Shown here piece after piece: positions 379 to 55,587 of a stretch of DNA of 64,000 nt. Made by a program: the position numbers and the translations under genes. The stretch's first letter is position 1. Each line of letters opens with the position of its first letter. Source of the DNA: an uncultured delta proteobacterium (GTDB lineage Bacteria > Desulfobacterota > Binatia > Binatales > Binataceae). A model generated the notes under the pieces. It saw nothing but the letters and a program-made list of their open reading frames with translations. It was not told the DNA's origin and made no database searches. Where the stretch lies: assembly GCA_963808235.1 (NCBI GenBank), contig CAWEEQ010000004.1, positions 1,248,001-1,312,000 on the forward strand. Reading direction: 5' to 3'.

Positions 379-421
379 CTGGAATCTCCCTAGTGACCAG
401 TTTCAGTGATATATCCTCTAT

Positions 422-30483: not shown

Positions 30484-30526
30484 TCGCGAATTGCGTGGCG
30501 GCTCATTTGCGTCGATCATAGAAAGG

Positions 30527-31207
30527 ATGAGGAGCGGGATTTTTCTTGCGATTGCGCTGGCGTTGACGGTCGGCACCCCTACTCATGCCGAAAATGTTAC
30601 GCCGGTCAGCGCGCCGGCAAGCAGCAGCGGCCTGAAGCAGGTGCTCGATCGCCTGCAGCGCCATTACCGCGACACGAATTCGTTCTCGGCAAAATTCAAC
30701 GAGGAGATAACTACGGTCGGCGCGCCCAAACGCCAACGCTCGGGTGTCGTTTCGTTCCGCAAGCCGGGCCGGATGCGATGGGAGTTCGCGGCGCCTGAAG
30801 TGCAAACGATCGTGAGCGACGGCGACATGCTCTACAGCTACGACCCGGAGCTCAACCAGGTCGTCGAGACTCCGCTCAAGCAGGCGCTCAAATCGAGCAG
30901 CGCGACTTCGTTCCTGCTCGGAATGGGAAATATCAACCGCGACTTCAAGGCCGAGTTTGCGAATTCGCCGGCGTCCGACGGTCTCATTCAATTGCTGTTG
31001 GACGCGAAGGCCGGTGGCTATAAGATTGAGATCGGGCTCGATCCGAAAAGCTACAACTTGATGACCTTGACGATTACCGATCAGCTTGGCGACGTGACCA
31101 AAGTAGATTTCACCGACATCCACAATAACGTCGAGCTGCCCGATTCGACTTTCGCATTCAAAGCGCCCACTGGCGCTGATATTGTGACAGCGCCTTCTGC
31201 GCCCTGA
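30527..31207 (+). CDS. lolA: Outer-membrane lipoprotein carrier LolA
   Basis: Signal peptide; FRKPGRMRWE...IVSDG...YDPELNQV; follows ftsK. Confidence 0.88.
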   Translation: MRSGIFLAIALALTVGTPTHAENVTPVSAPASSSGLKQVLDRLQRHYRDTNSFSAKFNEEITTVGAPKRQRSGVVSFRKPGRMRWEFAAPEVQTIVSDGDMLYSYDPELNQVVETPLKQALKSSSATSFLLGMGNINRDFKAEFANSPASDGLIQLLLDAKAGGYKIEIGLDPKSYNLMTLTITDQLGDVTKVDFTDIHNNVELPDSTFAFKAPTGADIVTAPSAP

Positions 31208-31310
31208 AGTACTTCAACGACGACGCGCTACGCTTAACTCTCGCAACCGCGTTTGCCTCGCCTCTATCCGGCGAGTATTTATAAAGGCCCCGTAATTTCG
31301 CGCTTCGCTC

Positions 31311-32651
31311 ATGGAAAAAGTTCATCTACTCACGCTTGGATGCCCCAAGAATCTCGCCGACAGCGAGCTGATGCTCGGCGCGCTGAGCGCGGCCGGCTTC
31401 GAGATCACGCTCGATCCCGAAGAGGCGCAGGTGCTGCTGGTGAACACGTGCGCGTTTATCGAGGCGGCGAAGAAGGAATCGATCGACGCGATCCTCGAGG
31501 CTGCGGAGGTAAAGAAGCGCGGCGCGGGGAAGCGGCTGGTCGTCGCGGGATGCCTGTCGCAGCGCTACGCCACGGAACTCGCAGCGACGATGCCGGAAGT
31601 AGACGTCTTCGTGGGCACCGGTAATTTTCTTGATCTGCCGGAATTGCTGCGCCGCACCGAGTCTCCGGAGAACCGCCCGATTCCGTACGCGGGCGCGGCT
31701 CACTTGCTGCCGACCGCCGCGATCCCGCGAATCAAGACCGGAGATTTCTTCACCTCTTACTTGAAGATTTCCGAAGGCTGCAATCACAAGTGCGCCTTCT
31801 GCATCATTCCGAAGATTCGCGGACTGCATGAGAGCCGCCCTCTCGCCGATTTGGTGGCGGAGGCGCGCAATCTCGCGGCCACCGGGGTTCGCGAGATCAA
31901 TCTGATCGCGCAGGATTTGACCGCATATGGCCGCGACCTCGATTCGCCGTCGTCGCTCGCCGCGTTGCTGCGAGAACTTTCAGCCGTCGAGGAACTCCGC
32001 TGGATTCGGCTCCTCTACTGCTATCCGAACTTCGTGAGTGCCGAGTTGCTCGACGCGATCGCCGAGCTTCCCAAGGTGGTCAAGTATATAGACATGCCGC
32101 TGCAGCATGCCGACGATGCGATCTTGCGTGCGATGCGCCGCGAGCGCTCCGGCGCCGCGCTGGTTAAACTGCTCGATCGGATTCGCGCGCGGATTCCCGG
32201 CGTCGTGCTGAGGACCTCGTTCATCGTCGGCTTCCCCGGCGAGACCGATGCCGCATTTCAGCGCCTGCAGGATTTCGTTTGCAGCGAAAAGTTCGATCGG
32301 CTGGGAGTGTTTACTTACTCGCGCGAAGAGAACACCAGCGCCTTCGACCTGGCGGATCAGGTGCCGGAACGGATCAAGCGCGCCCGGCGCGCCGAACTGA
32401 TGACGACGCAGGCGGAAATTTCCCTGGGCAAGAATCACGACCTGGTCGGACGCGAAATGGAAGTGCTGGTCGAAGGCCCGATGCCTGGGCGCTCGAACCG
32501 GCTACGCGCACGAACCTCTGGCCAGGCGCCGGAAATCGACGGCTCCGTGTTCCTTGCCGGCGACGCCGAGGCTGGAGAATTTGTCCGCGCACGAATCGAC
32601 AAGGCGCTCAGTTACGACTTGCATGCGACCGTGACCGATGCGGTCGCTTAA
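31311..32651 (+). CDS. rimO: Ribosomal protein S12 methylthiotransferase
   Basis: LGCPKNLADSE, NTCAFI, radical SAM CNHKCAFC, APEIDG in the TRAM domain. Confidence 0.95.
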   Translation: MEKVHLLTLGCPKNLADSELMLGALSAAGFEITLDPEEAQVLLVNTCAFIEAAKKESIDAILEAAEVKKRGAGKRLVVAGCLSQRYATELAATMPEVDVFVGTGNFLDLPELLRRTESPENRPIPYAGAAHLLPTAAIPRIKTGDFFTSYLKISEGCNHKCAFCIIPKIRGLHESRPLADLVAEARNLAATGVREINLIAQDLTAYGRDLDSPSSLAALLRELSAVEELRWIRLLYCYPNFVSAELLDAIAELPKVVKYIDMPLQHADDAILRAMRRERSGAALVKLLDRIRARIPGVVLRTSFIVGFPGETDAAFQRLQDFVCSEKFDRLGVFTYSREENTSAFDLADQVPERIKRARRAELMTTQAEISLGKNHDLVGREMEVLVEGPMPGRSNRLRARTSGQAPEIDGSVFLAGDAEAGEFVRARIDKALSYDLHATVTDAVA

Positions 32652-32674
32652 ATATACGGGGAGTCGCAAATCCG

Positions 32675-33127
32675 ATGACCAGCAAACCAGTTGCCGCCGA
32701 CCGAAAGAAGTTTCTGACCAGCGCGCGCGAGAACTTGCTCGAGACCAAAGCGAAACTGCTCGGCGTCATCGACTCGGAGTTGCGCGCCGAACGCGAGAGC
32801 AACAAGGACGAGGGCATGGATACTTACGATCTCGCGTCCGAAGAGCGCGATCGCGAAATCAATTTCATCCTCTCGGACCGCGAACGCGTGAAGCTGCTGC
32901 AGATTGACGAGGCGCTCGAGCGTCTCGACGACGGCACCTATGGAGTTTGCGAGTCGTGCGGCCTCGAGATCGCCGAGGAGCGCCTCACTGCGATGCCGTT
33001 TTCCAGGCTTTGCCGCGATTGCCAGCAAGACCAGGAGCGCGAAGCCAAGTCGCAGCGCCGCTACGATGACGAGCCCAACGCCTATCGAAAGGTTGGTTCA
33101 ACCGACGCCGACGACGAAAGCGTCTGA
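32675..33127 (+). CDS. dksA: DksA/TraR C4 zinc-finger transcription factor
   Basis: DxxDxA motif (DTYDLA); YGVCESC...RL.AMP...LCRDC. Confidence 0.85.
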   Translation: MTSKPVAADRKKFLTSARENLLETKAKLLGVIDSELRAERESNKDEGMDTYDLASEERDREINFILSDRERVKLLQIDEALERLDDGTYGVCESCGLEIAEERLTAMPFSRLCRDCQQDQEREAKSQRRYDDEPNAYRKVGSTDADDESV

Positions 33128-33275
33128 TCGCTAGTTGAGCCCGATCCGTCGAAAATATCCCGCCAGGTTGAGGGGCGATTGCGGCAGGCATTGTCTGCCG
33201 GACCCTTCAAACATAGCATCTTAACCAGCGTCGCTTGCGGGACCATTTTACATCGCATACGAGGGGCGGGACCGA

Positions 33276-34224
33276 TTGATGCGGATATTTTCCGATCTTG
33301 AGACGGATGGCGCGGTCAGGCCGCACGCCGATCTCGCTTTTTCGCGCGAAAGAATTCGCGCCAATCTGGCCGGCGTAGGCGCGACGATTGCGCTTGCGAG
33401 CGCTCGGGGCGGCGTCGGCAAGAGTGTAGTCGCCGTGAACATCGCGGCGGCGCTCGCGCTCAAGGGCAAGAAAGTTGCGATCGTCGACGCGGACCTCAAT
33501 TCTCCGAGTGTCGCGGCGATGCTCGGGATGAAGCCGCAACGAAATTTTCCGATGGTCGAAGGTATCGAGCCGGCCGCGGGGCCCCATGGTTTGCGCACGG
33601 TCTCGAGCGCGCAGCTAAACGGCGGCGAGGCCTCCGGCAATCAGCTTTGCGCAACACTACGAACAAACTGACGGTGAAAACGACGGTCAGGCTGTCACAC
33701 CTGCGCGACTGAATTCGCCCATACTCGGCTACACGGAAGCTCTGACTCGACTATTCGCACAAACTCAATTCGGTAACGTGGATCTGTTGATAGTCGATCT
33801 CGCGAGCGGGCTCGATCGCCTTCACTCGGTCGCTGCGATGGTTTCGCTCGACGGCGTGCTGCTGCTCAGTCATCCGTCGGAGCACGCTGCCCATGCCGCG
33901 CGCCATGCCTTCGAAATCGCGAGCATGATCGGCGCGCCGATCGTTGGCATCGTCGAGAATATGATTGGATTCAATTGCGACGGATGCCGCTCGGTGAGGC
34001 CGTTATGGCCGGAGGGCGATCTGCACGGCGTCGCGCGCGAGCACAAAGTGCCGATCATCGCGCGGCTGGCGTTCGAGCCGCGCCTCGCCGACAGCAGCGA
34101 TCGCGGCGTACTGTTCGTCCGCGAGCACGCATCCACGCCGACCGGCAAGGGCCTTATCGATCTCGCGAGCAAGGTCGAAGCGATCATCGCGACTCGCGCC
34201 CGCTCCGCACAGACGCCGGCCTGA
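33276..34224 (+). CDS. Mrp/NBP35 (ApbC-like) ATP-binding protein, frameshifted near 33650-33710
   Basis: SARGGVGKS, VDADLNSPS in 33276..33671; DLLIVDL, GIVENM...CDGC in 33778..34224. Confidence 0.8.
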
Positions 34225-34225
34225 C

Positions 34226-36016
34226 TCAATCCGTATCAGAATCTTCGAGGTCGTTGACGCCGGTCATCACCGACTCGGCGCGGCGCGAATATTCGAACAT
34301 TCCAGCGCCTCGATGCGCTCCGGCGCGGAAGCTCGCGAAGCCAAGCGACGTATAGATGCGTGATTGTTCGGGTCCTGGCCGTGAAAGCGGGATGAAGCAT
34401 TCGGCGCGGCCTTCGAAGTCGAACGTCGATCCGTCGGGATTGGCAATCGACGCGGAAATGCTCTCAGGCGGTTCTTCGACAGAGGCGGTCTCGATTGAGA
34501 GTTCGTGGAGTTCGCACGCAGACCATCCGGTGGCGCGAAGAATTCTCGCGCTCTGAGCCGGGAACGCATCGTCAGTCTCGACCGATCGAGCTTCAAGCGC
34601 GCGCGGCGCTCCATCTCCTTCGAAGCATGCCCACAGCATTCGTCGAGCGGAGAACTTCTGCGGCCCCAGTCCGGTGAAGGACATCCCGGCGCGCGCGTAA
34701 CCGGTCACGGCCAGCGCCTTGCCGTCGACGCAGACACTTCCGGCAATTCGGCCGAACGCGGCGCTCGAAGAGGGCGCCGCCGCCGAGTCGGCGGACACCG
34801 ACAGAATTCGATCGAAGTTGAAATCAGTGTCTCCGCGGCCAGATTCGATCTGGAAACGGATTTCTACGTTCATCGCGTGATCGAGCCGGCCCGATGCCAA
34901 CGCGCGTTCGATACTCAAGTACGCGGTCGCATCAGGGACGATCACCGCTGGACCGCGAAACGAAAGGACGATCGCATCGCCCTCGCGCGTGAGCGATAGC
35001 GGCCCGTGCGCGACCGAGCTTTCCGAACGCGTCGGACGGCCCTCGGCGGTGAACAGTGCCGCGCGGCGGCTGTCGAACAGGACCATGATTCGCGCGCCCA
35101 TGCCCGCGCCGCCGACATCGAAGCTCGCCATTGCGCCGATGCGCGCGATGGGATCGAAGAACTCGAGACCGACTCGCCCTGGCGCGGCGCCCGTCGCCGC
35201 GGCGCCGATTTCCGGCCTTGCGATGTGCGGCCGCGGCGCGCGATTGACGACCATCCGAGCGGGTGACGGACGCGGCGCAGAGCCGTTTGGCGAGAATGCC
35301 GCCGCGATAGCTTCCTCGCATCGCGCGCGCAATTCGCCGGGCATCCGCAGCGCCACGGACAGTTCGAGTTGCACGGCGTCGACGCCGCCGCCGACGGAAG
35401 TTTCGGAAATCTTCTTCAGTGCGGCAATCGGACTCTCGCGATGACGCGACGAAAATGCCTGCAACAGATTCTGCAGGCCACCGCCCGGATAGCGCATCCC
35501 ATAGCTCGGCATGATGTTATGCGCGCGCAGCCGCTCAGCCAGATCGGTCAAGGGGCCGTGGATGAAATCGTCGCTCGCCGAGACGCAGGCCGAGCCCGGC
35601 GGGCAGAGTTCGCCGCCAATGTTGCGCAAGCCAAGGCCGATATCGACGCGCGGCTCGATTATGTTCCATCCGTGAACGAGCAGCACTATCGCGTGGCCGT
35701 GACGGGCGACAATCTCTGCGGTTCGGTCCGCGATCATCTCGAGCAACCACGGCGCCTGCTCGACGATCTGCGAAAGTCGGTTGCAGTCAAGCCGGTTACG
35801 ATCCATCCCGATGTTGATTAGCGCCGACGCGCCGAGACGAATCGCAAGTGTGCGCGTGATGTCGGCGGTATGAAGGTCGTTTACTTTCGGATTGAGCAGT
35901 GAGCGAGTGCGCGGCTCCGCGCGTCCACCGTGCGGCGCGATCAGTAGAAACGGCGAATCGGAATCGATCACCTCGAGCCATGAATCGGGCGCGCGATTGA
36001 GCATGGATTCAGGCAT
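34226..36016 (-). CDS. Hypothetical two-domain protein: N-formylglutamate amidohydrolase-like N-terminus plus beta-rich C-terminal domain
   Basis: LIAPHGG...DLHT...LDCNR...LLVHGW...AVQLEL resembles the FGase/Zn-hydrolase pattern; C-terminal half ends in GAGMFEYS; last gene of the lipid operon. Confidence 0.6.
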   Translation of the reverse strand: MPESMLNRAPDSWLEVIDSDSPFLLIAPHGGRAEPRTRSLLNPKVNDLHTADITRTLAIRLGASALINIGMDRNRLDCNRLSQIVEQAPWLLEMIADRTAEIVARHGHAIVLLVHGWNIIEPRVDIGLGLRNIGGELCPPGSACVSASDDFIHGPLTDLAERLRAHNIMPSYGMRYPGGGLQNLLQAFSSRHRESPIAALKKISETSVGGGVDAVQLELSVALRMPGELRARCEEAIAAAFSPNGSAPRPSPARMVVNRAPRPHIARPEIGAAATGAAPGRVGLEFFDPIARIGAMASFDVGGAGMGARIMVLFDSRRAALFTAEGRPTRSESSVAHGPLSLTREGDAIVLSFRGPAVIVPDATAYLSIERALASGRLDHAMNVEIRFQIESGRGDTDFNFDRILSVSADSAAAPSSSAAFGRIAGSVCVDGKALAVTGYARAGMSFTGLGPQKFSARRMLWACFEGDGAPRALEARSVETDDAFPAQSARILRATGWSACELHELSIETASVEEPPESISASIANPDGSTFDFEGRAECFIPLSRPGPEQSRIYTSLGFASFRAGAHRGAGMFEYSRRAESVMTGVNDLEDSDTD

Positions 36017-36030
36017 TCAGATCGACGCTG

Positions 36031-36788
36031 CTACGTACGCGCGTTCAGTGCGGCTCGTGCGTGGAGAATAAACGACGCAATGAAGTAGTAGGCGATGAAA
36101 CTCAGCGCCGCCCACAGCATCAGGGGATTTACTGTCGGGCAACATGAAGAGCATCGCGACCGTGATGACCGCCCAGATTATTCCGAGCGTCAGCGTTATC
36201 GCCCGAAGTGGCACGGTGCGGTTTGGATATATGTACCTTCATCGGCACGAGGACCATCACGCCGAGAAGCAACAGGACGGCCACATTGAATAAAGTTCCG
36301 TAGCCGAGGCAGAACAGGTAGAACGCGACCAGGTTCCAATAATTCGGGAAGCCGAGAAAATAATGATCGTCAGTCTTGGCGCGGGTCTGGCAAAATCCAT
36401 AGACGCTCGCGAGCATGATGAAACACGCAAGCCCGAGGCCCCATCGCGAGCCCGGAATGATTCCCGCCTCGAGCATCAGGAACACCGGCGCGACCGTGTA
36501 GGTGAGGTAATCGACAATATTGTCGAGCAGTGCGCCATCGAAGGACGGCACTCGCATTTTGACCATCAGCATCCGCGCGAGCGGGCCGTCGCTCGAATCG
36601 ATGATCGTCGCGGCGCCCATTGCCAGGAACGAGGCGCGATAGTCGCCATGGGCCGCGGTGAAAATCGCGATCAGGCCGAGCGCCGCGCCGAGTGCCGTGT
36701 AGAGATGCACGCCCCAGGCGCATACCGTGAGAAATGCCTGGCGCGGAATCGCGCGAGGCAAACTTTCGGCTGCACCTGGTGAGGTCAA
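36031..36788 (-). CDS. pcs: Phosphatidylcholine synthase-like CDP-alcohol phosphatidyltransferase, frameshifts near 36240 and 36120
   Basis: AWGVHLYTALG, IDSSDGPLAR...P.FDGALLDNIVDYLTY...P, KTDDHYFLGFPNYWNLV as in Pcs; C-terminus reconstructs through LRAITLTL... to FIAYYFIASF...RT*. Confidence 0.8.
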
Positions 36789-36789
36789 G

Positions 36790-37326
36790 TCATTTGTCCG
36801 GCTTGTAGTCGCGCGGTCCGAAATAATCTTCGAGCACCGTCATGAAGGGACCGCACGCGCGTTGTTTCTTGACTAGCATCATCGCCTCATCGAGCGACAT
36901 CCGCCGATACGCGCGCAGAAACGCGATTGCGAGCGTCGGCGCGCGATTCATTCCAGCGTTGCAATGCAGGTAGACGCGCCCGCTCGAATCGACCAGCTCG
37001 CGCAATTCGTGTAGCGCAATTTCGAGCCGCTCAGCCATCGCGTCCGCGCTGCCGTCCTGGATCGGGGTGCGAACATAATCGATTCCGTGCGCGTCATATT
37101 CACTGCGCAGGAGTGTCGGATCCAGACCATTCAGGCGCAAGTCTTCGTCGTCCTGCAGATTGTGCACCGCAGCAATTCCAAAGGTATCCTTCAGCCAGCC
37201 GATATCGTCCTGCCCCGGATATTCGCCGACCAGCAGTTCGTCGGATATCACGCTGACCGACGGACGCCGCCCGTTTCGAGTCGGTCGTGGATCGTGATCG
37301 TGCCGCTTGCTGAACCAATCAACCAT
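36790..37326 (-). CDS. Dual-specificity phosphatase (DSP/PTP family)
   Basis: CX5R loop VYLHCNAGMNRAPT; PIQD general-acid loop. Confidence 0.9.
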   Translation of the reverse strand: MVDWFSKRHDHDPRPTRNGRRPSVSVISDELLVGEYPGQDDIGWLKDTFGIAAVHNLQDDEDLRLNGLDPTLLRSEYDAHGIDYVRTPIQDGSADAMAERLEIALHELRELVDSSGRVYLHCNAGMNRAPTLAIAFLRAYRRMSLDEAMMLVKKQRACGPFMTVLEDYFGPRDYKPDK

Positions 37327-37403
37327 AACCCAAATGTAACCATCCGCGGGGCCGGTATTCCAGCGCCACCGCGGTTTGCCCCGAAATGCCCGGCATTTGT
37401 GCG

Positions 37404-40400
37404 TTAAGCCTTGGCGTGTCCGCGCGGATTTTCGCGCGATCGTTCGGCTTTGCCAACCACCGGCGTCGACGATTCAGGAACCGCGGAGGGCGCGGGAAGA
37501 TCCTTCGATGCGGATAATCGTAGTCTTCGATTCGAGCCGGCGAGCGCGATAACCGTGTCGCGCATAAAGTCGGCGAGTTTGCGATAAGCGCCGGCGCCTT
37601 CGGAGCTGTCGGCGAGATCGCGTATTTCGGCGGCGGTGATCGCGCCCCCGATTCGGACTTCGACCGCGGAACGCCGCGGGACGAGACTGCCCTTGCCCAT
37701 CACGTCGTGAGTGCCGCGAATCAGCACCGGCAGCACGTCGCACTTGGCGCGCAACGCGAGAAATCCAGCGCCGCTCTTGAACTCATGAATTTCGCCGTCG
37801 GCTGAGCGCGTGCCTTCGGGAAACATCAGGACGCTTCTTCCTTGCGCGAGTTCGGCGAGCGCGTCTTCGAGCGATTCGAGTTGCGCGCGTTCGCGGTCGA
37901 ACGGCATCAGTGTCGTAAAATTCGACGCGAGAAAGCGCCGCGCCGGAGTGTTGAAGAAATAATCCTTGGCCGCGAGCACCCGAAGATCGTCGCCGATCGC
38001 ACCGAGCGCGTAACCGACCAGGCTGAAGTCGAGATGGCTCGAATGATTCGCGACTACGATAAAATTTCGATTTGCGGGGATGTTGCCGCGCCCGAGAATT
38101 GTCGGCTTCAGCCATCCGTCGAAGATCGCCCGCTCGGCGCCACGAACTGTCGCGCGCCCGAGCCATTTGAGCGGCGCCGGCAGATGAAATGTGTACGGCT
38201 CGGCAAACTTCGCGTAGGACGGCATCCGCTGGCGCCCGTTTCCGTTCGGTTGCGTAGACAACCGCTGCAGGTCCGCGACGCTGCGCAGGTCGGCGATCTC
38301 CTCGGGAGCTATATCGCGGCCCGCACGCTGGCCGATAAGCTCGCCGATCTCGGCCAGCGCGAGCGAATCGAGCCCGAGGTCCTCGATCAGACGCGTCGCC
38401 GGAGTGATATTGACCGGCTCCGACGCGATCATAGCCAGCGCCTCGGCGAGCCAGGTTTCTACTTCTGAATTGGCGGCGTCAGTCGCGACATCTTTGACCC
38501 GGACGTCGAGCATCCGGCGCAGTATCGCGGCGACCTCGTTGCGTTTGATTTTGCGGGTGCGCGTCCGTGGCAGTTCCGCATCGACATAACGGATAATCCT
38601 GATTCGCTTGTGCGCGCCGAACTCGCCCGCGACTTTCTCGAAATCGCCGCGCAGCCGATCCTCGACCGCGCGCCGGGTCTCTCCGCGCGAATACGCCGGC
38701 ACGACCAAGGCCGCGACCTGCTCGCCCTTACCGACCTTCAGTCCGACGACCGCCATCTCCTTCACGTACTGCGAACGGCCGTAGGCTTCTTCGAGTTCGT
38801 CTATATAGATGTTGTTGCCGCCGGAATCGACGATGACTTCCTTCGCACGCCCGACAACATACAGACGCCCGTCGCCGTCAAATCTCCCGAGGTCTCCGGT
38901 GTGAAGCCATCCGTCGCGAATAACTTCCGCCGTGGCCGCCTCATTGCGATAGTAACCCGCCATCACGTTCGGCCCGCGCGCCACGATTTCGCCGATCGAT
39001 TCACCTTCGGGATCGAGCTTGATCTCGACTCCGGTCAGCGGCTTGCCGACCGACCCTACCTGGTGCGCCTCGTCGGGTCGCGCGACGGCGAGCACCGGCC
39101 CGGCTTCAGTCAGGCCGTAACCCTCGAGCAGCGGAATTCCGATATCATTGAAAAAATCCGCGACTCGATGGGGCAGGGCGGAGCCGCCGCTGACCGCCAA
39201 CTTAAGCCGCCCGCCGAGCGCGGAATGAACCTGGCGAAATACGATCGAACCGAAGTTGAGGCCGGAGCCCGCGTCCAGCCGGCGATTGAGATCGCGCAGA
39301 TTGTCGAACGCCGCGTGGTAGAAGGGCCCGCGCTCCTCGACTTCGTCAACTATTCGCCGATGCACCGCCTCCCACACCGCAGGCACTCCGATCAGCGCGG
39401 TCGGACGCACGTCTGCAAGCGTTCTGGACAATGTCTTCGCGTCAATTTCCAGCGGGTAGACGATCGTCGCCCCACTCGCAAGCGGCAGCAGCATCCCGCA
39501 GGTGAACTCAAACGTATGATGAAGCGGCAGCAGCGACAGCACGACGTCATCGGCGCCGAGGACGAAGACTCGCGAGAGCATCGCGATCTCCGCGGCGAAA
39601 TTCCCATGCGTCAGCATCACGCCCTTCGGCGCGCCGGTGGTGCCGGAGGTAAAGACCAGAGAGGCGAGCGCCTTGCGTTCGTGCTGGGCGGGCGGCGCTT
39701 TCGCTTCGCCACGTAAAATGAACGGTCGCCCCAGCTCGGCAATGTCGAGCTGGAGAATCTTGCGGTTCATATCGCCGAACGCGTCGCCGAGGCGTTTGTG
39801 CACCGCGCTCGATCGAAGCGCGGCCGCCGGCTCGGCGATCTTGCAGATCGGCGCCAGTTCCTCGGCGGAAATCAAATGATCGAGCGGCACCGCGACCGCG
39901 CCCGCACATAGAATCGCAAAGTAGCCGAGCACCCAGTCGGGCGAGTTCTCGCCGATCAACAGCACTCGATCGCCCGGCTTGATGTTGCGCGTCGCGAGCA
40001 GCAGTGCCCCCCGATGCGCCTTGTCGCGAAGCTCGCGGTAGGTAGTCTGCGTCTGCTCGCCCGAGGGCCGCCGCGCGATCATTGCTACCTGCGATCCATA
40101 ACGCTCTGCCGCACGATCGAGCATGTCGACGAGGTTGCGATGACGCGGCAGGGATTTCGGGCGCCCGCGCGTATGCAGGTCGAGCTGCGGAAAAATGTGG
40201 CGGCGCAGTCCCGGCAGATGGACGTTGAGCCAGTAGTCGTGCCAATCGATCAAGTCGGGGCGAAACGGATGATGCGCAGCGTCGGCGGGCTTCAGCGTCG
40301 CATAGAGCGCGCGAATATTTCCGCCATGAAATGTGTAAACTAGCTCCTGTATGTAAGGCCGATAAACCTCGACTAGGTCGCGCGCGATATCGGTGTTCTC

Positions 40401-41763
40401 CTTGAATTTCCGGATCTCGCTTTCGATTTTCTTCGCGCGTTGATTTTCCGCGCCGACTACGTTGCGGACTAGCTCCGCGCCTTGCTCGAGAACTCGTGGA
40501 ATCGTTCGGCTCGCCAAATCGTAGGTGTTCTGCGACACCACGACCGCCTCCAGATGGCGCCCGAGCCAAGCCATTGAGCCGCTTTCCTTGCGATGCTCGC
40601 GGCGATTGCTGAGCCCGGTAAGCTCGACCAGCCGGCGCATCGGAAGCGGATTCCGATCCGACGTGCAGAGCTGGTAGATGGGCTTTTGCTTGCGGAGAAG
40701 GAGCGCGGCGAGAATCGGAATCATCGCATGCGCGGCGAGATCGACCGGGATCACATCGAGCACCAGGTCGGCCTTCGCCGGATAAAAGCGGTAACCGCGC
40801 CCCGCAAGATAAGTCAGCGGAGCGCTGGTGTTGACCCCCTGGTTCCAGCCGGGAAAAGGATCGCGAAGCGCACTTTCGATGACCGCCGGGCGCACGACGG
40901 TGACGTTCAATCGCCCGCGCTCGGCGAGCACAAGCTGCTCGCCGAGACTTTTCGTATAGCTGTACGTGTTGGGCCAACCCCAACTCTGCGCGCGCTTGCG
41001 TCCAACGTCCTTGAGCCGCTCTTCAACCCACTGCTTGCGGCGATGCTCGACCGCTGACTCGCGCGGACTCTCCGCGTCGAGGTCGTCGTCGCCGCGAAAC
41101 TCCGCGTGGCGGACTTGGTCGCGCGATTCCGCCTCGACCCGCGCGATCGCCGCGAGCGCGTCGCGAATCTCCCGCTCCAAGCGGAACGACTTGCGCCCGC
41201 TCGGGCACCAGTCTTCGGGGATGTCGTCTTCGTAACGATGCCCATCGGCAACTCCCGCCACGTAGCACGTCGATACGTGCAGCATCGCGGCGCCGAGGTT
41301 CGCACAGAACTCGATCACGTTGGCAACGCCGGTGGCGTTCACCTCGATCGCTTTTTCCAGCGACGCTTCGAAGTTCACCAGTCCTGCGCTATGCACCACG
41401 GCGTCGAGACTGCCCGGCTTGAATGGTTTCGCCTCGTCGCCGAGAAGACCGTCGTTGGTGATGTCACCTGGCACGACGATGATCTTTTCCTCGACGTGGC
41501 GATCGAACTGCTCGCCGAAGTGCTCGCGAACAGGGCGTCATCGCAGGCGAATCGAGAATCTCGCGCCGGAAACGGCCGAGACTGCTGCGCAGATCGCCGC
41601 GGATGAGCAAATAGATTTTCTCGATCTCAGGATGCCACCGAAGCATCATCGCGAGAAAAACTTTGCCGAGAAATCCGGTCGAGCCCGTCAGGAGAATTCG
41701 CCGGCCCTTAAACACCTGCTCGAGCGGCGGCATTGCGAGCCTATTTTTGCCGTTACTCGACAT
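37404..41763 (-). CDS. elbD: Multidomain fatty acyl reductase - adenylation - ACP - acyltransferase enzyme (ElbD-like), frameshift near 41530
   Basis: FAR: LLTGSTGFLGK, HVSTCYV, WPNTYSYTK, RPAVIES; adenylation: FTSGTTGAPKG, EGYGLTE, HTGDLG; ACP: DLGLDSL; PlsC-type: NHSSHLD, FPEGTRS. ORFs 41464..41769 and 37404..41474 join via ...REHFGEQFDRHVEEKIIVVPGDIT. The symbol rests on domain architecture. Confidence 0.8.
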
Positions 41764-43393
41764 CCGCAATCACCAACGGTGGCAAATGCAGATACGTAAT
41801 CGAGGCCGAGCGCCCGAGCTCCGCGGTCGCCATCGCGATTGCCTCGTCGAGCGTGTCAGCCGCTTCCCATCCCATTCGCGCCGCTACTTCAGGCTCTTCG
41901 CAGCCCGCCGCAATCACGCGGCCAAGGTGCTGACGCGCCGGCTCGCCCCAGTACCACATGTAGAATGGATGCACCCCGTGATACGCGTTGCCGTAGCGAT
42001 ACATATGGATGTAAGTCGGGTTGCGTGCGAACTCATGCTCGAAATTCTTCTCGAGTTCGACCGCGTCGGTCGTCTCGGCGAGGCATCGATGGAAAAACTC
42101 GATGTAACTCGGATGATGCTCGGGATGAAACTCGTCGCGCAGCGGATGACAAACGATCATGGTGCCACCTTCTCGCACCAGCGGCTTGTTGCGGTACATG
42201 TTGAACAGGTAACCGAGTCCGGTGCACTGCGCGAGAATCGGATTCATGATCGAGTTCACGTTGTACGGACAGATGTACGGGACCCCGACGATCAGAATGT
42301 CGGCCTGACCCTTCACCGGCACCGCGTATTGTTGGAAGACTCGCGCGAGCGCCTTCTGATGCACCGTCTCGGTGTCGCCCGCCCACACCCCGATCATTCC
42401 GTAGGGCGCCGCATAGTTGTGCAGCACCTGGCGGCGAAGCTCGCTCGACATGTTGCGCAGCGTCCACTGAAAACCCTTCAACCGCGTGCGATCCCAATCG
42501 CTGAACTGGTCTTCGTTCTTGTGCAGGAAATCGAGCATCCCGCCGTACATCCGAGTGTTCACCGCGGTCTCGATCTGAAAAATATTCAGCGATTCGTGGA
42601 TGAGCTTGCCCATCCGATCCGACGAGCGATGCAGCGCCGAGCGCGTGGGATCCATGTACGAATGCGAATCGCGCAGCGTCTGCGGGTTATGGTGATGACG
42701 CAGGCTCTGATACGGCGCGAGACCCACGGCAACCGACTTATGCCCGCCGTCCATCGGCACCAGGTTGATATTCAGATAGATGAGCAGGTCGGAATCCGCG
42801 GCGCGCTTCGAGAGCCAGACTTCCTCGCCATGGCCGGTTTTGCCGAGCATCGCAAGCTCGGCGCGATTTTCCGCGTCGAAATTGTATAGCCGGTCCGGCC
42901 AGTACTGTTTGAACGCGCGCTCGCCCACGATTCGGCGAATCTCCGCCTCCGTCATCCGCCGATGTAGCGAAGTGGCGATCACAAGGTGCACGTCATCGAC
43001 GCCGTAGTCGGCGAGAGTCTGCAGCACCTGGTTCAGGAGGCGCTCGCGGATGTCGGGCCGGCGCATCTGCGGCAGCGGCAAACTGATGTCGTCGATAGCG
43101 ATCGTCACGCGCATGTTGGGACTCAACTGCGCGAACAACGGATCCTGGTTTTCAGGATGAAGCAGCGCGTAGCGAATCGCCTGGTCGGCATCCGCGAGCG
43201 GCTCCAGCGGCGGCGGTGGATAGATCACTCGCGTGCCCACCGGCAGCTTCTCGAACAGGAACTCTTCGCCGCAAGGAATGATCCGGCGCTCGGAACGCCG
43301 GTTGACGGTCACGACCAGGTCGCGGCGCGCACCGACTTCATGACGAAGCTCGGCGGGCTTGAGTTCCTTGAGCTTGCCTTCAGGACGCGCCAT
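41753..43393 (-). CDS. Lactate racemase-like (LarA/DUF2088) domain protein
   Basis: IAIDDISLP, IATSLHRRMT, DGGHKS, L.REGG.MI; overlaps both neighbouring genes. Confidence 0.8.
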   Translation of the reverse strand: MARPEGKLKELKPAELRHEVGARRDLVVTVNRRSERRIIPCGEEFLFEKLPVGTRVIYPPPPLEPLADADQAIRYALLHPENQDPLFAQLSPNMRVTIAIDDISLPLPQMRRPDIRERLLNQVLQTLADYGVDDVHLVIATSLHRRMTEAEIRRIVGERAFKQYWPDRLYNFDAENRAELAMLGKTGHGEEVWLSKRAADSDLLIYLNINLVPMDGGHKSVAVGLAPYQSLRHHHNPQTLRDSHSYMDPTRSALHRSSDRMGKLIHESLNIFQIETAVNTRMYGGMLDFLHKNEDQFSDWDRTRLKGFQWTLRNMSSELRRQVLHNYAAPYGMIGVWAGDTETVHQKALARVFQQYAVPVKGQADILIVGVPYICPYNVNSIMNPILAQCTGLGYLFNMYRNKPLVREGGTMIVCHPLRDEFHPEHHPSYIEFFHRCLAETTDAVELEKNFEHEFARNPTYIHMYRYGNAYHGVHPFYMWYWGEPARQHLGRVIAAGCEEPEVAARMGWEAADTLDEAIAMATAELGRSASITYLHLPPLVIADVE

Positions 43394-44201
43394 TCGAACC
43401 TCGCCTGTTTTGCTCGCGGTCTTCTTCGTCGTCGAAGTTGGATTCGCCAATATCGTCCAGGACCGCGTCGCCGTCCGAAGAAACACGGTCGTTCGAAAAA
43501 GCCAGATCGCGCGAAGACGGACTCTTCTCGAAACGGATCACAGGCCATTGCCGATTGGTCGCCGCGGTGAACAACTTGCGATCGGGATTGACGGCTACCG
43601 GATGCCCCAACGCGGCGAGGAACGCCGTGTCGTAGTGCGAGTCCGCGTACCCCCAACAATCGGCGAGGTCGATATCCCGCTCGGCGGCATATTGCGCGCA
43701 CCAGACCGCCTTCTCGTCGCTGGCCATCACCGGCGCTTTAAGTCGCCCCGTCGCCACGCCTCGGCTGAAGACGAATCGGTTGGCGGCGAAGTCTGCGATC
43801 TCCAGATGCCGCGCGAGCGGTTCCACGATGAAATCCGGCGAGCCGGTTACCAGCACCGGCGCGATACCGGCGCTGCGATTCGCCTCGATCAGCTCGACCG
43901 CCAGCGGATACAGGTTGCGAATCAGTACCCGCTCGCAATATTCTTCGCCGAGCGAGAACAGGCGATCGCGCGAGACACCCTTGAAAGCCTCGAACAGGAC
44001 CGTGTTCAAGAGCCGCCGATCGCGGCGCTCGGCAAGGTAGAGTTGCGGGATTCGCGCCGCGAAGCCGAACAGGTACGACAGCCGCCCGCTCCATTCGCCG
44101 ACGTTGGCGAGCATAAAAAGCGCTGCATGCACCAGGTTCAAGCCGACCAGGGTGCCGTCGAGGTCGTAAAAAGCGGCGCGGCGCTTTTTCACTCGCGCCA
44201 T
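43380..44201 (-). CDS. HAD-IB family hydrolase (SerB-like phosphatase)
   Basis: FYDLDGTL, VTGS, K, YADSHYD...L...GHPVAVNPD. Confidence 0.9.
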   Translation of the reverse strand: MARVKKRRAAFYDLDGTLVGLNLVHAALFMLANVGEWSGRLSYLFGFAARIPQLYLAERRDRRLLNTVLFEAFKGVSRDRLFSLGEEYCERVLIRNLYPLAVELIEANRSAGIAPVLVTGSPDFIVEPLARHLEIADFAANRFVFSRGVATGRLKAPVMASDEKAVWCAQYAAERDIDLADCWGYADSHYDTAFLAALGHPVAVNPDRKLFTAATNRQWPVIRFEKSPSSRDLAFSNDRVSSDGDAVLDDIGESNFDDEEDREQNRRGSNGAS

Positions 44202-44220
44202 GGCGCCATCTTTGTGGGAA

Positions 44221-44234
44221 ACTGACATGTCAGT
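44221..44234. promoter_or_regulatory. Perfect 14-bp palindrome, candidate TetR operator
   Basis: ACTGACATGTCAGT between the TetR stop (44235) and the HAD ATG (44201). Confidence 0.55.
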
Positions 44235-44900
44235 CTAGTTTTTGCTCCAAAAAAAAGGGTCCGGGTCGGGGCCGGACTCGCTCGCCGACTCGCCCTGAGG
44301 ACGGATAAACTTCAGCAGCTCCGGCCGCGCCACTCCGCGCAGTCCGAAGTCGAGGATCTCTTCGACGAATTCCTGCTTGTCGATCCCGCGGCTGCGCGAG
44401 ATCATGCCGATTACCTCCTTGATGCCGCCCAAAATCGCGTACGAGGTCGCGCGCGTGTTCGATTTGCGCACCAGGTTCATTTCGATTCCCAAATCCAGCG
44501 AACGCTGAATCAGCGCCGCGATTCGATCGTAAAAATCCTGGATTTTCTCGTCGAGCTCGCGGTCGAAGCCGGTCGAATGATTGAGCAGGATGTCGGTGAG
44601 TTCGCGTTCGGTGAGCACGTATGCGAGCACCCGCTCGAGGTTATCGCGCAACTGTTGCACCGGATCGGGATGCCCCGGGCCAACCCGCAGCCGTTCAATC
44701 CTGGTCGTCAGTTCGCCGACCACTTGCTCGAGCAGTTCCTCGAAAAGGTCTTTCTTGTTCTGAAAATAAAGATAAAAGGTGCCCCGCGCGATTCCCGCGC
44801 GCGCAATGATGTCCGCAACGTTGGTCCTGTGATAACCCTTGCGAGCAAAGATACGTTTGGCGTGGCGCAACACTTGCGCGCGTCGTGCTTGACGTTCCAT
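44235..44900 (-). CDS. TetR/AcrR family transcriptional regulator
   Basis: FARKGYHRTNVADIIARAGIARGTFYLYFQNK HTH. Confidence 0.93.
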   Translation of the reverse strand: MERQARRAQVLRHAKRIFARKGYHRTNVADIIARAGIARGTFYLYFQNKKDLFEELLEQVVGELTTRIERLRVGPGHPDPVQQLRDNLERVLAYVLTERELTDILLNHSTGFDRELDEKIQDFYDRIAALIQRSLDLGIEMNLVRKSNTRATSYAILGGIKEVIGMISRSRGIDKQEFVEEILDFGLRGVARPELLKFIRPQGESASESGPDPDPFFWSKN

Positions 44901-44933
44901 CGGGGGTGCCTTGGGCAGAATTCCGGCGACTTC

Positions 44934-44963
44934 AGGCTAGTCCACGAATACTTTTAGTGTCAA
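44934..44963 (-). promoter_or_regulatory. Putative sigma-70 promoter for tetR and the lipid operon
   Basis: Minus strand TTGACA-N18-TAGCCT, 33 nt upstream of the TetR ATG. Confidence 0.45.
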
Positions 44964-45011
44964 ACCAATATCGGCGTAGAATTTCGTGCCAAAACTTCTT
45001 GAGGAGAACGA

Positions 45012-45467
45012 TTGATGAGCGACCCATCTTTTTGGAACAAAGTCCACGCGGCTGCCAGCAAAGCAACATGGGCATATCTCGCGACCGCCGACGGAAATCA
45101 GCCCAAAGTTCGCGTCGTGCATCCCGCGTTCGAAGGCGAACGCGTATGGGTCGCGACCGGCCGCGGCTCGGCGAAGGCCCGCCAGATCGGAAAAAATTCC
45201 AACGTGGAACTCTTCTACCAGATTGGCGCCGAGATGGTTCATCTGACCGTGACTGGGAAGGCGACCTTTGTCGCGGACCCGGCCGAGAAGAAGCGAATCT
45301 GGAACGGGAAGGTGTTCGATTACGATCTCAGTCAGTTCTGGCCGGCCGGGCCCGACGCGGATGACTTTGGCCTGATGCTGATAACACCGGCGCGCATTGA
45401 GCTGACGTCGTTGTCTGAGATGACGACCGGAAAGAAGCCTGAAGTCTGGCGCAGTGCTAAAAAGTGA
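45012..45467 (+). CDS. Pyridoxamine 5'-phosphate oxidase-like (FMN split-barrel) protein
   Basis: YLATADGNQPKVR...T...S.KARQI..N.NVEL; GAGGAG RBS. Confidence 0.85.
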   Translation: MMSDPSFWNKVHAAASKATWAYLATADGNQPKVRVVHPAFEGERVWVATGRGSAKARQIGKNSNVELFYQIGAEMVHLTVTGKATFVADPAEKKRIWNGKVFDYDLSQFWPAGPDADDFGLMLITPARIELTSLSEMTTGKKPEVWRSAKK

Positions 45468-45660
45468 TTACTCACATCGACTGGCTATTCAACGATTAGC
45501 TACTTTGAGCATTATTGTGAGGCATGAAATGTAGTAAACTATCTGTTCCGCGCCGACCAAAATACATAGTCAAGTAGTTACCTTAGTAACACCGCGCACT
45601 CCTCTCATTTCGCGCTTCGATCTCAGTATGTGAGCGACTGAAATAAAAGAGGGGTATACA

Positions 45661-46905
45661 ATGTTAAGAAGCTCGAAGGTCGGGCGCGGCTCGGTTGGGC
45701 GATGGACAGTGGCGGCGGGAGCGTTGATCGTCGCGCTCACTGTCACGGCTTCCGCTTCCAATTCATTCGCCACCATTATTGAGGCCTGTCAGAGGCGCAA
45801 CGGCAGAATTCTGATCGTCGATCCCAAGGGCTCCAAGGGTCCAGCGCATTGTGATCAGGACGAGACCCTGATCACCTGGAACGTACAGGGTCTGACGGGT
45901 CAGATGGGTCAGCAAGGTCCGGCAGGTCCGGTGGGTCAAGCAGGTCCGGCAGGTCAGGCAGGGTCAGCGGGGCCTGCGGGACCACTGGGTCCTATCGGAT
46001 CGGCGGGACCGTCGGGACCGAGTGGCCCGATGGGTAACGCCGGCGCGGCCGGACTGACCGGACCAGCGGGACCGAGTGGCCCGATGGGTGACACCGGCGC
46101 GGCCGGACCAACCGGACCAGCGGGACCGAGTGGCCCGATGGGTGACACCGGCGCGGCCGGACTGACCGGACCAGCGGGACCGAGTGGCCCGATGGGTGAC
46201 ACCGGCGCGGCCGGACCGACCGGACCCTCGGGACCGAGTGGCCCGATGGGTGACACCGGCGCGGCCGGACCGACCGGACCCTCGGGATCGAGTGGCCCGA
46301 TAGGTAACACCGGGGCGGCCGGACCGACCGGACCAGCAGGCGCTGACGGAGCCTCTGGCGCTACTGGCGCGACAGGTCCCTTGGGACCATCAGGGCCAGC
46401 GGGCGCGGACGGATCTGCGGGAGCTACTGGAGCGACTGGCCCCTCTGGTCCGACAGGTGCGACCGGTTCGAGTTCGGCGCTGGTCTTTGGCGGCACTCAA
46501 AACAGCTCGATGGACGTCACCAATCCGACCTATATGGGTCCAGGCAACGGCGTCCTTGTCACAGCCGTCCAGACCACCGGGACCCAAACGGTTGGCGTCC
46601 CGATGCCAGTCGCGGGCATCCTGAGCAATCTCCAGATACATATCACGAACCCTATGTTTGAGCCTCTGGGTTTGGATTCCTGGACATTCAATGTATGCGT
46701 GAACAACACCTGCACGAATGGTTTGGCATGCACGATAAACAGCGGGATAATTCCAACCACGGTGTGCAGTGACAACGTCGACACCGTGAGCTTTGCCGCT
46801 GGTGACCTCCTGACGATTCAGGCAGTGCCGACCAACAATTCAGGTCTACTGCCAGCTACGCCGGCGGGTTTCTCGGCCACCTACGCGCCGCTGCCGCCGA
46901 CGTAA
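45661..46905 (+). CDS. Secreted collagen-like (Gly-X-Y) protein
   Basis: Signal peptide, Cys-containing N-domain ending ITWNVQG, long uninterrupted GXY tract, Cys-containing beta-rich C-domain. Confidence 0.9.
   Translation: MLRSSKVGRGSVGRWTVAAGALIVALTVTASASNSFATIIEACQRRNGRILIVDPKGSKGPAHCDQDETLITWNVQGLTGQMGQQGPAGPVGQAGPAGQAGSAGPAGPLGPIGSAGPSGPSGPMGNAGAAGLTGPAGPSGPMGDTGAAGPTGPAGPSGPMGDTGAAGLTGPAGPSGPMGDTGAAGPTGPSGPSGPMGDTGAAGPTGPSGSSGPIGNTGAAGPTGPAGADGASGATGATGPLGPSGPAGADGSAGATGATGPSGPTGATGSSSALVFGGTQNSSMDVTNPTYMGPGNGVLVTAVQTTGTQTVGVPMPVAGILSNLQIHITNPMFEPLGLDSWTFNVCVNNTCTNGLACTINSGIIPTTVCSDNVDTVSFAAGDLLTIQAVPTNNSGLLPATPAGFSATYAPLPPT
46014..46337 (+). repeat. Six tandem 54-bp repeats in the collagen tract
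   Basis: Unit GGGACCGAGTGGCCCGATGGGTGACACCGGCGCGGCCGGAC(T/C)GACCGGACC(AG/CT)C starting at 46014, 46068, 46122, 46176, 46230 and 46284. Confidence 0.92.
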
Positions 46906-53426: not shown

Positions 53427-53459
53427 GATGCCCGCGCGATAGTATAATCACCGACGCCG

Positions 53460-55501: not shown

Positions 55502-55587
55502 TCTACCAGTCAACACCGAACGTACGCTGGCATTGATGCGCAAGGGGGTGCGTAGCTATCGCCGCGGGAGCACCCTCCGTAAGACGC

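Follow-up and report, generated by a model that had tools for sequence, protein, structure and literature searches.

What would a bacterium make from a gene block that places ether-lipid genes directly before the gene for a transferase resembling phosphatidylcholine synthase (Pcs)? We addressed this question for a block of seven genes in Candidatus Binatus (family Binataceae), found on a 64,000-nt stretch of genomic DNA that we refer to as the window. The genes encode, in order, a TetR regulator, a HAD-IB phosphatase resembling ElbB, a LarA homologue resembling ElbC, a four-domain protein resembling ElbD, a dual-specificity phosphatase (DSP), a Pcs-type phosphatidyltransferase and a 596-aa protein, here called Unk596. 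An earlier reading of the same DNA (hereafter the original prediction) held that they form one dedicated pathway, in which ElbD gives an alkyl-glycerol phosphate, DSP dephosphorylates it, and the transferase and Unk596 decorate it, possibly to ether-linked phosphatidylcholine (PC) or a lipid with a new headgroup. We found instead that the block consists of two modules, a TetR-elbB-elbC-elbD ether-lipid core and a DSP-Pcs-Unk596 headgroup module. On balance it is probable that the whole is a membrane-lipid block of Candidatus Binatus, headed by the TetR gene, in which the ether-lipid core and the headgroup module are joined.

Two gene modules behind one TetR gene

Open reading frame, Pfam and NCBIfam calls placed all seven genes on the minus strand (Table 1), co-oriented as had been claimed. 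The claim of overlapping or near-abutting gene ends also agrees with the measured junctions, which are, in gene order, a gap of 6 nt, overlaps of 14 and 11 nt, and gaps of 77, 1 and 14 nt.

The gene order is shared widely within the family. It was kept in all eight congeneric loci and in 10 of 11 loci from seven other Binataceae genera, with the eleventh (L050) carrying TetR-HAD-LarA-ElbD only. We then turned to a GTDB scan with one genome per species and an alignment of Pcs proteins as the query, and screened the best 80 of the 572 confirmed loci with eight proteins. These 80 loci contain 36 complete sets, 14 of which have an additional phospholipase C-like (PLC-like) gene, and 6 more that are truncated by the contig end and consistent with the same order. 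Such an arrangement is far beyond chance. Among 151 sampled genomes of the class, full-length four-domain ElbD was present in 16 of the 18 Binataceae genomes, the window's own included, and by best E-value in none of the 133 others. The counts in this study include four genomes flagged as unpublished, namely a Binatus genome lacking ElbD (G018), one with unlinked modules (G173), a congener with Unk596 (G023) and an Acidobacteriota match (G230); G000 denotes the source genome of the window, other G labels the genomes of relatives and L labels individual loci. ElbD identity was 83-91% within the genus, 58-72% across the family and 31-41% to Acidobacteriota. The corresponding values for the LarA homologue were 94-98%, 79-87% and 50-60%, which makes it the best conserved of the proteins encoded here. 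Homologues of Unk596 at 70-75% identity and of Pcs at up to 96% identity were found in Candidatus Binatus and other Binataceae.

The headgroup genes also occur without the ether-lipid core. Among the 80 screened loci, eight Binataceae loci with enough upstream sequence carry headgroup genes and no elbBCD: TetR-PLC-like-DSP-Pcs-Unk596 in L070 and L090, PLC-like-DSP-Pcs-Unk596 in L094 and L099, DSP-Pcs-Unk596 in L108, Pcs-Unk596 in L107 and L119, and PLC-like-DSP-Pcs in L076. A further locus, L095, also has PLC-like-DSP-Pcs-Unk596. ElbD was encoded elsewhere in four of the five genomes with ElbD-free headgroup loci, and was not found in the fifth (G172). Pcs was kept, at 74-85% identity, in all four genomes tested for it, three of which lack ElbD (G042, G018 and G172; the fourth, G009, was not itself searched for ElbD). 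The Binatus genomes G042 and G018 have neither a full-length ElbD nor a Lar_N domain. Pcs has at least one partner gene in 56 of the same 80 loci, and DSP is among the partners in 51 of them. The other 24 are Pcs-only loci, almost all at 49% identity or less, and belong to other Binatia, Methylomirabilota, Vicinamibacterales, Nitrospirales, Pirellulales, Anaerolineales and Syntrophobacterales. Wherever the full set is present, a TetR gene stands at its head, and in L070 and L090 this gene heads the headgroup module directly.

The converse was observed in Acidobacteriota, where 42 of 301 sampled genomes encode a full-length ElbD, at 32-41% identity. The genes for HAD (elbB) and the LarA homologue (elbC) adjoin ElbD here as in Binataceae, in 10 of 20 loci and in the same order in 9; one further locus has the LarA homologue only, one has HAD only and eight have neither. 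Genes for TetR, DSP, Pcs, Unk596 or the PLC-like protein were found in none of these 20 loci within ~7.8 kb of ElbD. Since headgroup loci occur without ElbD and Acidobacteriota ElbD loci occur without headgroup genes, elbB-elbC-elbD moves as one unit and (PLC-like)-DSP-Pcs-Unk596 is a second unit; the fusion of both behind one TetR gene is a feature of Binataceae. The proposed conservation of DSP, Pcs and Unk596 beside ElbD thus holds across this family, but not as a general feature of ElbD loci, and the headgroup genes are not tied to ElbD even within Binataceae.

Table 1. Features of the lipid block in the window, in the order in which the genes are read, with the evidence for each call.
Feature	Position	Strand	Evidence
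Sigma-70-like promoter upstream of the TetR gene	44934-44963	-	Alignment of 10 Binataceae upstream regions
TetR regulator, first gene	44235-44900	-	PF00440 61.4 bits; TetR_C_24 30.6 bits
HAD-IB phosphatase, ElbB-like	43380-44228	-	TIGR01490 113.6 bits (cut-off 98.3); PF12710 95.5 bits
LarA homologue, ElbC-like, formerly DUF2088	41753-43393	-	NF052592 'LarAH14/15/16' 839.2 bits (cut-off 740); start from ORF translation and orthologue start
ElbD-like four-domain gene	37404-41763	-	NAD_binding_4/Sterile, AMP-binding, PP-binding, Acyltransferase
Conserved non-coding stretch, ~45 nt, directly upstream of the DSP gene	37327-37371	-	Near-identical in 7 Binatus sequences
DSP-fold phosphatase	36790-37326	-	PF00782 57.7 bits (cut-off 33.5); HCX5R loop
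Pcs-type CDP-alcohol phosphatidyltransferase	36031-36788	-	Five Pcs models are the best matches
Unk596, 596-aa two-domain protein	34226-36016	-	No family assigned; weak DUF7064 match only

The Pcs-type transferase and its partner genes

The original prediction called the transferase Pcs-like, and both the hidden Markov model scores and the sequence motif place it with Pcs and not with PssA or PgsA. An intact orthologue (P0005) matched five Pcs models at 129-185 bits over nearly the whole model length, and its next-best matches were archaetidylserine synthase (32.9 bits) and PssA (31.5 bits). All 12 Binataceae sequences compared share the motif DX2DGX2ARX12GX3DX3D without variation (D64, D67, G68, A71, R72, G85, D89 and D93). 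Its 12-residue spacer is a mark of Pcs that has been described for the Sinorhizobium enzyme, S. meliloti Pcs (PMC3972451), which also shares the CDP-alcohol phosphatidyltransferase fold family and a length of ~250 aa; where the Binataceae proteins have GX3DX3D, the description in that paper prints GX3GX3D, likely a misprint. In contrast to that system, the gene studied here is flanked by the genes for DSP and a two-domain hydrolase and is joined to elb genes in most Binataceae. Stand-alone homologues from Pirellulales, Vicinamibacterales, Methylomirabilis, Anaerolineales and Syntrophobacteraceae ranked the models in the same way, scored 170-230 bits and, like the Binatus protein, fall below the curated equivalog cut-offs of the Pcs models, which therefore appear to be clade-specific. 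G000 carries seven PF01066 genes. Of the six others, the five that could be typed are PgsA-like or phosphatidylinositol-phosphate (PIP) synthase-like, which leaves a single Pcs-type gene among the six of seven that were typed. Database names differ in reach, with JGI giving phosphatidylcholine synthase and NCBI family membership only. As judged by profiles and motif, the transferase is of the Pcs type, and its use of choline is predicted.

In the phosphatase next to it we found the loop HCNAGMNR, which fits HCX5R, and, on visual inspection, no signal peptide. Among solved structures it is closest to two plant glucan phosphatases, LSF2 (E 7e-19) and SEX4 (E 3.7e-10), which act on phosphate esters of carbohydrates. 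DSP travels with Pcs and not with ElbD. Moreover, Pcs joins a CDP-activated lipid with choline and does not use a dephosphorylated lipid, as described in PMC3972451. Because of this chemistry and the company DSP keeps, the proposal that it dephosphorylates the ElbD product is not supported. Most likely, it acts on a small phosphomonoester linked to the headgroup, either phosphocholine, freeing choline, or a phosphorylated headgroup.

For Unk596, sequence comparison gave no Pfam match to N-formylglutamate amidohydrolase (FGase, PF05013) or AttH at E <= 0.01, and only a weak one to DUF7064. Matches in the protein atlas were to Binatota hypothetical clusters only, with DUF7064 on 19-27% of members. 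Relatives were found in 22 of 24 congeners. Of 16 genomes that represent the other families of the class, 13 have relatives too, at 26-45% identity and with alignments that mostly cover the first 390 residues. In 12 Unk596 loci of other Binatia families, no neighbouring gene family occurred in more than 5 loci and none stood at a fixed position. An AlphaFold model built from 28 sequences (pLDDT 87.2, pTM 0.89) predicts two domains. Residues 7-248 would adopt the fold of FGase and PghP (2q7s, Z 16.5, root-mean-square deviation 3.1 over 194 residues; 2odf, Z 16.4; poly-gamma-glutamate hydrolases, Z 13-14). Residues 270-581 would form an AttH/CrtC-like double beta-barrel (2ich, Z 20.5, root-mean-square deviation 3.4 over 249 residues), which also resembles fungal Diels-Alderases (Z ~20), 25-phosphosteroid lyase (Z 19.9) and kievitone hydratase (Z 18.1); 9g2i (Z 19.9) and 7a0q (Z 18.1) are among the matching structures. 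These are likenesses of fold, and sequence identity to the AttH/CrtC and FGase/PghP proteins is only 8-18%. A fusion of FGase-like and AttH-like folds was not seen among the solved structures listed. The motifs PHGG, NDL, DRNxxDxNR, HGW and QLE are invariant or nearly so in the 28 sequences, a conservation that would fit an active hydrolase. On the structural model, we read Unk596 as a candidate hydrolase that holds a hydrophobic substrate in its lipid barrel.

How, then, might these genes work together? One answer is that the module salvages choline and turns it into PC. A secreted zinc-dependent PLC-like enzyme would free phosphocholine from lipids outside the cell, DSP would free choline from it and Pcs would use the choline, a logic that resembles that of PlcH, PchP and Pcs in Pseudomonas aeruginosa. 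The PLC-like gene fits such a role by its position between ElbD and DSP, seen in 7 of the 11 other-genus loci, 2 of the 8 congeners and 23 of the 80 screened loci. Its 285-aa product (P0006) has a signal-peptide-like N-terminus and matches Zn_dep_PLPC at 37.1 bits (cut-off 26.8). However, it also matches S1-P1 nuclease (31 bits, cut-off 29.5), and the gene was found neither in the window nor anywhere in the G000 genome. Furthermore, DSP lacks a signal peptide, so phosphocholine would need to be imported, and the block contains no transporter gene. We therefore regard salvage as unlikely for this block. An example of the PLC-like gene is found at L013:10754-11611 (G006), and the same position is occupied in L020, L041 and L044-L049.

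A second possibility is that the Pcs-like transferase and DSP form a synthase-phosphatase pair, as PgsA does with phosphatidylglycerophosphate phosphatase and PIP synthase with its own phosphatase. In that case a phosphorylated alcohol would be the substrate of the transferase and DSP would take off the terminal phosphate, leaving a headgroup other than choline, possibly a sugar or polyol. The DSP gene stands directly before Pcs across a 1-nt gap and accompanies it in most partnered loci, the closest solved relatives of DSP act on carbohydrate and not on protein, the Pcs scores are below the equivalog cut-offs, and the stand-alone Pcs homologues of other phyla occur without DSP. Those stand-alone homologues score no better, however, and all five Pcs models were matched at full length together with the Pcs-specific X12 motif. 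In addition, three loci (L105, L107 and L119) have Pcs-Unk596 without DSP. Taken together, we find such a pair doubtful.

The single dedicated pathway of the original prediction draws on the tight placement of DSP, Pcs and Unk596 beside ElbD in most Binataceae and on the short gaps in the window. It is improbable in the light of the eight headgroup loci without ElbD, the genome that has these genes and no ElbD (G172), and the retention of Pcs in all four genomes tested, three of them ElbD-less and one not searched for ElbD. None of the 20 Acidobacteriota ElbD loci has the headgroup genes, and prior dephosphorylation of the lipid would block the Pcs step as that step is described in PMC3972451.

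The ether-lipid core and its LarA homologue

The ElbD-like protein has the domain order FAR-type reductase, adenylation, acyl carrier protein (ACP) and AGPAT-like acyltransferase in its Pfam matches, with the N-terminal piece taken from a shifted frame (see below). Its translations contain the nucleotide-binding glycines, YxxxK, the adenylation core, the ACP serine, HX4D and EGTR. The domain order fits the description of Myxococcus xanthus ElbD in PMC9131029, the architecture that the original prediction had named, and together with the HAD and LarA/DUF2088 genes it makes an elbB-elbC-elbD-type core, again as proposed. M. xanthus elbA-elbE (Lorenzen et al. 2014, as summarised in PMC9131029) likewise has ElbB, ElbC and a four-domain ElbD in the same order, a likeness set by published domain and gene order. 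The Binatus block differs from that operon in having no ElbA or ElbE NAD-epimerase genes, a TetR gene at its head and DSP-Pcs-Unk596 after ElbD; the absence of an ElbE-like NAD-dependent epimerase gene from the cluster had been pointed out before. M. xanthus requires ElbD to make ether lipids and ElbE to reach their full levels, and the adenylation and ACP activities of ElbD have been confirmed in vitro (PMC9131029). The elb-like clusters of Acidobacteriota and sponge symbionts, the subject of a preprint (bioRxiv 10.64898/2026.06.23.733905) and in part of the survey above, likewise have ElbD with ElbB and a LarA homologue. The preprint gives Q1DC43 as M. xanthus ElbD, notes 'a phosphatase' beside one clade and does not mention phosphatidylcholine in its main text.

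We also considered a role other than ether-lipid synthesis, in which the fatty aldehydes or alcohols made by the ElbD-like enzyme would go into wax esters or some other product. According to PMC9131029, neither FAR activity nor ether-bond formation has been shown in vitro for any ElbD, and we saw no ElbE or AGPS gene in the block. Nevertheless, the elbB-elbC-elbD triad, genetically proven in M. xanthus, is shared by two phyla, and an AGPAT-like domain is fused to the reductase. These data make a wax-ester role quite improbable.

Next, we considered the LarA homologue, which scores above the cut-off of the curated NF052592 family and so belongs to the LarA superfamily. A profile search showed it to be the only Lar_N gene in G000. 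H119, K194 and H210 align with His108, Lys184 and His200 of Lactiplantibacillus LarA (L. plantarum; residue numbers from PMC12611868 and from counting in the alignment), and the cofactor-tethering K194 and the nickel-binding H210 are invariant in 4 genera. The position of the second catalytic histidine, His174, is occupied by N185, and by T in L051, so it is not conserved. LarA groups 14 and 15 have been reported without a second catalytic histidine (PMC12611868), and none of seven assayed reactions was catalysed by the LarAH14 of Frankia (PMC7583248). Since that histidine is replaced, the Binatus protein, as judged from its residues, belongs to the LarA superfamily without being a canonical two-base racemase. 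The solved structures closest to it are 9q2u and 9q3j, both long LarA-like nickel-pincer enzymes, and like them it is ~520 aa long. With groups 14 and 15, as described by Desguin 2020 (PMC7583248) and Gatreddi 2025 (PMC12611868), it shares Lar_N, the tethering lysine, the nickel histidine and the first catalytic histidine. Its context differs from that of the characterised superfamily members in these papers, being lipid synthesis and not hydroxy-acid or sugar metabolism.

The genes for the nickel-pincer cofactor are found elsewhere in G000, and all score above their cut-offs: LarC at 483 bits, LarE at 326.8 bits (cut-off 150) and LarB at 293.5 bits (cut-off 175). Across the 18 Binataceae genomes sampled, G000 included, Lar_N was present in all 16 that bear ElbD and absent from the 2 that do not. 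We therefore describe the ElbC-like protein as a putative nickel-pincer-type enzyme with its cofactor genes in the genome. LarC was also considered as a perfect marker of ElbC and was rejected in view of G042, which carries LarC without Lar_N or ElbD. That LarC gene lies at C45:5163-6290 (463 bits), and this Binatus genome may have lost its elb genes recently or may have another family of nickel-pincer enzymes.

PMC9131029 describes ether-bond formation in the elb pathway as unresolved since 2014 and ElbC as a protein of unknown function. Could ElbC be the missing catalyst? More conserved than any other protein of the block, it has the cofactor residues, is the sole LarA homologue in a genome with LarB, LarC and LarE, and co-occurs with ElbD. 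For these reasons we keep open, as a tentative reading that we hold to be unlikely, that ElbC is a nickel-pincer-nucleotide enzyme that also supplies the catalysis missing from the elb pathway of aerobic bacterial ether-lipid synthesis. The C2 hydroxyl of acyl-glycerol-phosphate would lend ElbC a hydride, or else a hemiacetal intermediate would be its substrate; the acyl group would be exchanged for, or reduced to, an alkyl group, and the hydride would then be returned. One redox-neutral enzyme would thereby do the work of eukaryotic AGPS and alkyl-dihydroxyacetone-phosphate reductase. If this were true, aerobic bacterial ether-lipid synthesis would depend on nickel and on LarB, LarC and LarE. 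We found no link between ElbC or ether lipids and the nickel-pincer cofactor in the literature searched, outside of which much primary literature lies, and the papers on LarAH14/15/16 found there made no mention of lipids or ether.

Integrity, control and predicted products of the block

Two genes of the block are interrupted in the window. The ElbD-like gene has an apparent +1 frame break near 41532, such that its first ~75 codons, the Rossmann part with the nucleotide-binding glycines, sit in another frame than the rest. The Pcs-like gene has two, near 36240 and 36136, and its last 70 codons are spread over two further frames. Comparison with relatives showed that each of the three breaks is a single extra G or C in a short run. 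ElbD is in a single frame, at 1438-1480 aa, in all eight congeneric and all eleven other-genus genomes (1456 aa in the intact orthologue P0004), and Pcs is in a single frame, at 234-271 aa, in those relatives wherever it is present. Five to six more frame changes were found in other genes of the window relative to two congeners, near 33630, 54450 and 57200 and twice in 3500-4600. The source assembly comprises 4 contigs and 4.59 Mb, and in the window it appears to hold roughly one indel error per 7 kb. Public soil-metagenome contigs that cover the break sites, some of them 98-99% identical to the window, have one base fewer in every instance: 4 contigs from 3 runs at 36135/36137, 2 from 2 runs at 36240 and 1 at 41532. 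Since the relatives have one frame, other genes of the window are shifted too and the public contigs lack the extra base, the three breaks are assembly errors and not decay. That the block is a set of pseudogenes in the making is highly unlikely despite a density of three breaks in 10.7 kb, somewhat above the rest of the window, as the catalytic motifs are also all intact in the ElbD-like, Pcs-like and DSP translations. The shifted genes outside the block lie at 410-4903, 33261-34221, 53448-55465 and 55537-58171 and encode a 1639-aa protein (two shifts), an Mrp/NUBPL-type P-loop ATPase, and proteins of 698 aa and 887 aa.

We observed a sigma-70-like promoter upstream of the TetR gene, with a -35 box TTGACA (44963-44958), an 18-nt spacer and a -10 box TAGCCT (44939-44934), ahead of the ATG at 44900. 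The TTGACA and TAnnnT boxes are kept in all 10 aligned Binataceae upstream regions, with TGACA invariant and T92, A93 and T97 of the -10 box nearly invariant. A generic scan of 33900-45700 did not list this conserved promoter. It returned 2 promoter-like sites, with 3.2 expected, and 9 terminator-like sites, with 12.4 expected; one hit was a weak sigma-70-like site at 37456-37428, in a region no richer in such sites than shuffled sequence. An inverted-repeat search of 44860-45040 for a TetR operator gave 0 pairs. The best similarity of the regulator below threshold was to the acyl-CoA-responsive FadR of Bacillus (NF053878, 64.7 bits), and because the cut-off is 200 it is not a FadR equivalog. 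Seven Binatus sequences are nearly the same over the ~45 nt that precede the DSP gene and vary further upstream; this stretch has no Rfam match and may act as an internal promoter or as the leader of an mRNA. An internal promoter would fit the modular origin of the block. A sigma-54 reading of this element was rejected, as the spacing from GG to GC is too short by eye.

Divergent from the TetR gene and 111 nt away lies a gene with a PNPOx-like flavin-binding fold (45012-45467, plus strand), which is found at 79-81% identity in G006 and G017 and may share the TetR control region. It is followed, just upstream of the block, by a gene for a 414-aa protein with collagen triple-helix repeats (45661-46905, plus strand; PF01391, 96 bits, 4 stretches). 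Downstream of the block, at 28258-33127 on the plus strand, are housekeeping genes syntenic with congeners, encoding FtsK, LolA, a MiaB/RimO-type radical-SAM methylthiotransferase and a DksA-type zinc-finger protein. In the whole window, an Rfam gathering scan gave 0 matches and an ARAGORN scan 0 tRNA genes.

We can now outline how the favoured membrane-lipid block, with its joined core and headgroup module, would work; we infer every substrate and product in Binatus. The regulator would release the promoter on a lipid signal. ElbD would activate a fatty acid and load it onto its own ACP, steps that have been shown for the M. xanthus enzyme (PMC9131029). Its FAR-type domain would then reduce the acyl group to an aldehyde or alcohol, and its AGPAT-like domain would act on a glycerol-phosphate backbone. 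ElbC, with a nickel-pincer cofactor, and ElbB would complete a 1-O-alkyl-glycerophospholipid. The general CdsA route would activate diacyl and alkyl-acyl phosphatidate, and Pcs would condense the CDP-activated diradylglycerol with choline, with DSP and Unk596 possibly serving headgroup supply or remodelling. Since a single conserved promoter and regulator precede both modules, the cell probably makes PC alongside alkyl-ether lipids. Co-expression would then make ether-linked PC a likely by-product of the ordinary CdsA/Pcs route, and not the product of a dedicated pathway. The ether-PC proposed in the original prediction is thus plausible as a product, but it has no pathway of its own, and it would not be a new lipid class, because phosphocholine-headed ether lipids have already been reported for Acidobacteria subdivision 4 (cited in bioRxiv 10.64898/2026.06.23.733905).

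Several observations weigh against this account. The best Pcs score, 185.5 bits against a cut-off of 440, is below every curated equivalog cut-off (300-440), and the choline specificity is predicted from sequence. The cluster has no ElbE gene. LarC tracks ElbC imperfectly: besides G042, with its LarC and neither Lar_N nor ElbD, G018 and G009 are without LarC. The 45-nt element may be a separate promoter, in which case the modules are perhaps not co-transcribed. The best run (X1) among the public metagenomes may stem from the window's own sample and is then perhaps not independent. Finally, the account of lipid synthesis in Binatia is a prediction from gene content.

The elb core, Pcs and phosphocholine-headed ether lipids are already known. 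What is new is the fused TetR-headed arrangement confined to Binataceae and the conserved DSP-Pcs-FGase/AttH unit, along with the prediction, from gene content, that Binatia make ether lipids and PC, and the recognition of ElbC as a putative nickel-pincer-type enzyme. We found no description of ether lipids in Binatia in the literature searched, and an earlier description elsewhere is possible.

In conclusion, the block makes a case, the first from genomic data, that Binatia have ether lipids and PC. These are abundant uncultured bacteria of soil and peat and could be a source of the soil alkyl-glycerol ethers whose producers are unassigned. In close relatives the same regulator heads either elbBCD with the headgroup module or the headgroup module alone, and this amounts to a natural dissection of the gene groupings. 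Phospholipid headgroup metabolism gains two new, conserved candidates, the DSP-Pcs pair and the FGase-AttH fusion protein. The reading that could matter most is that of ElbC as a nickel-pincer-type enzyme, which would offer a testable route to the formation of the ether bond.

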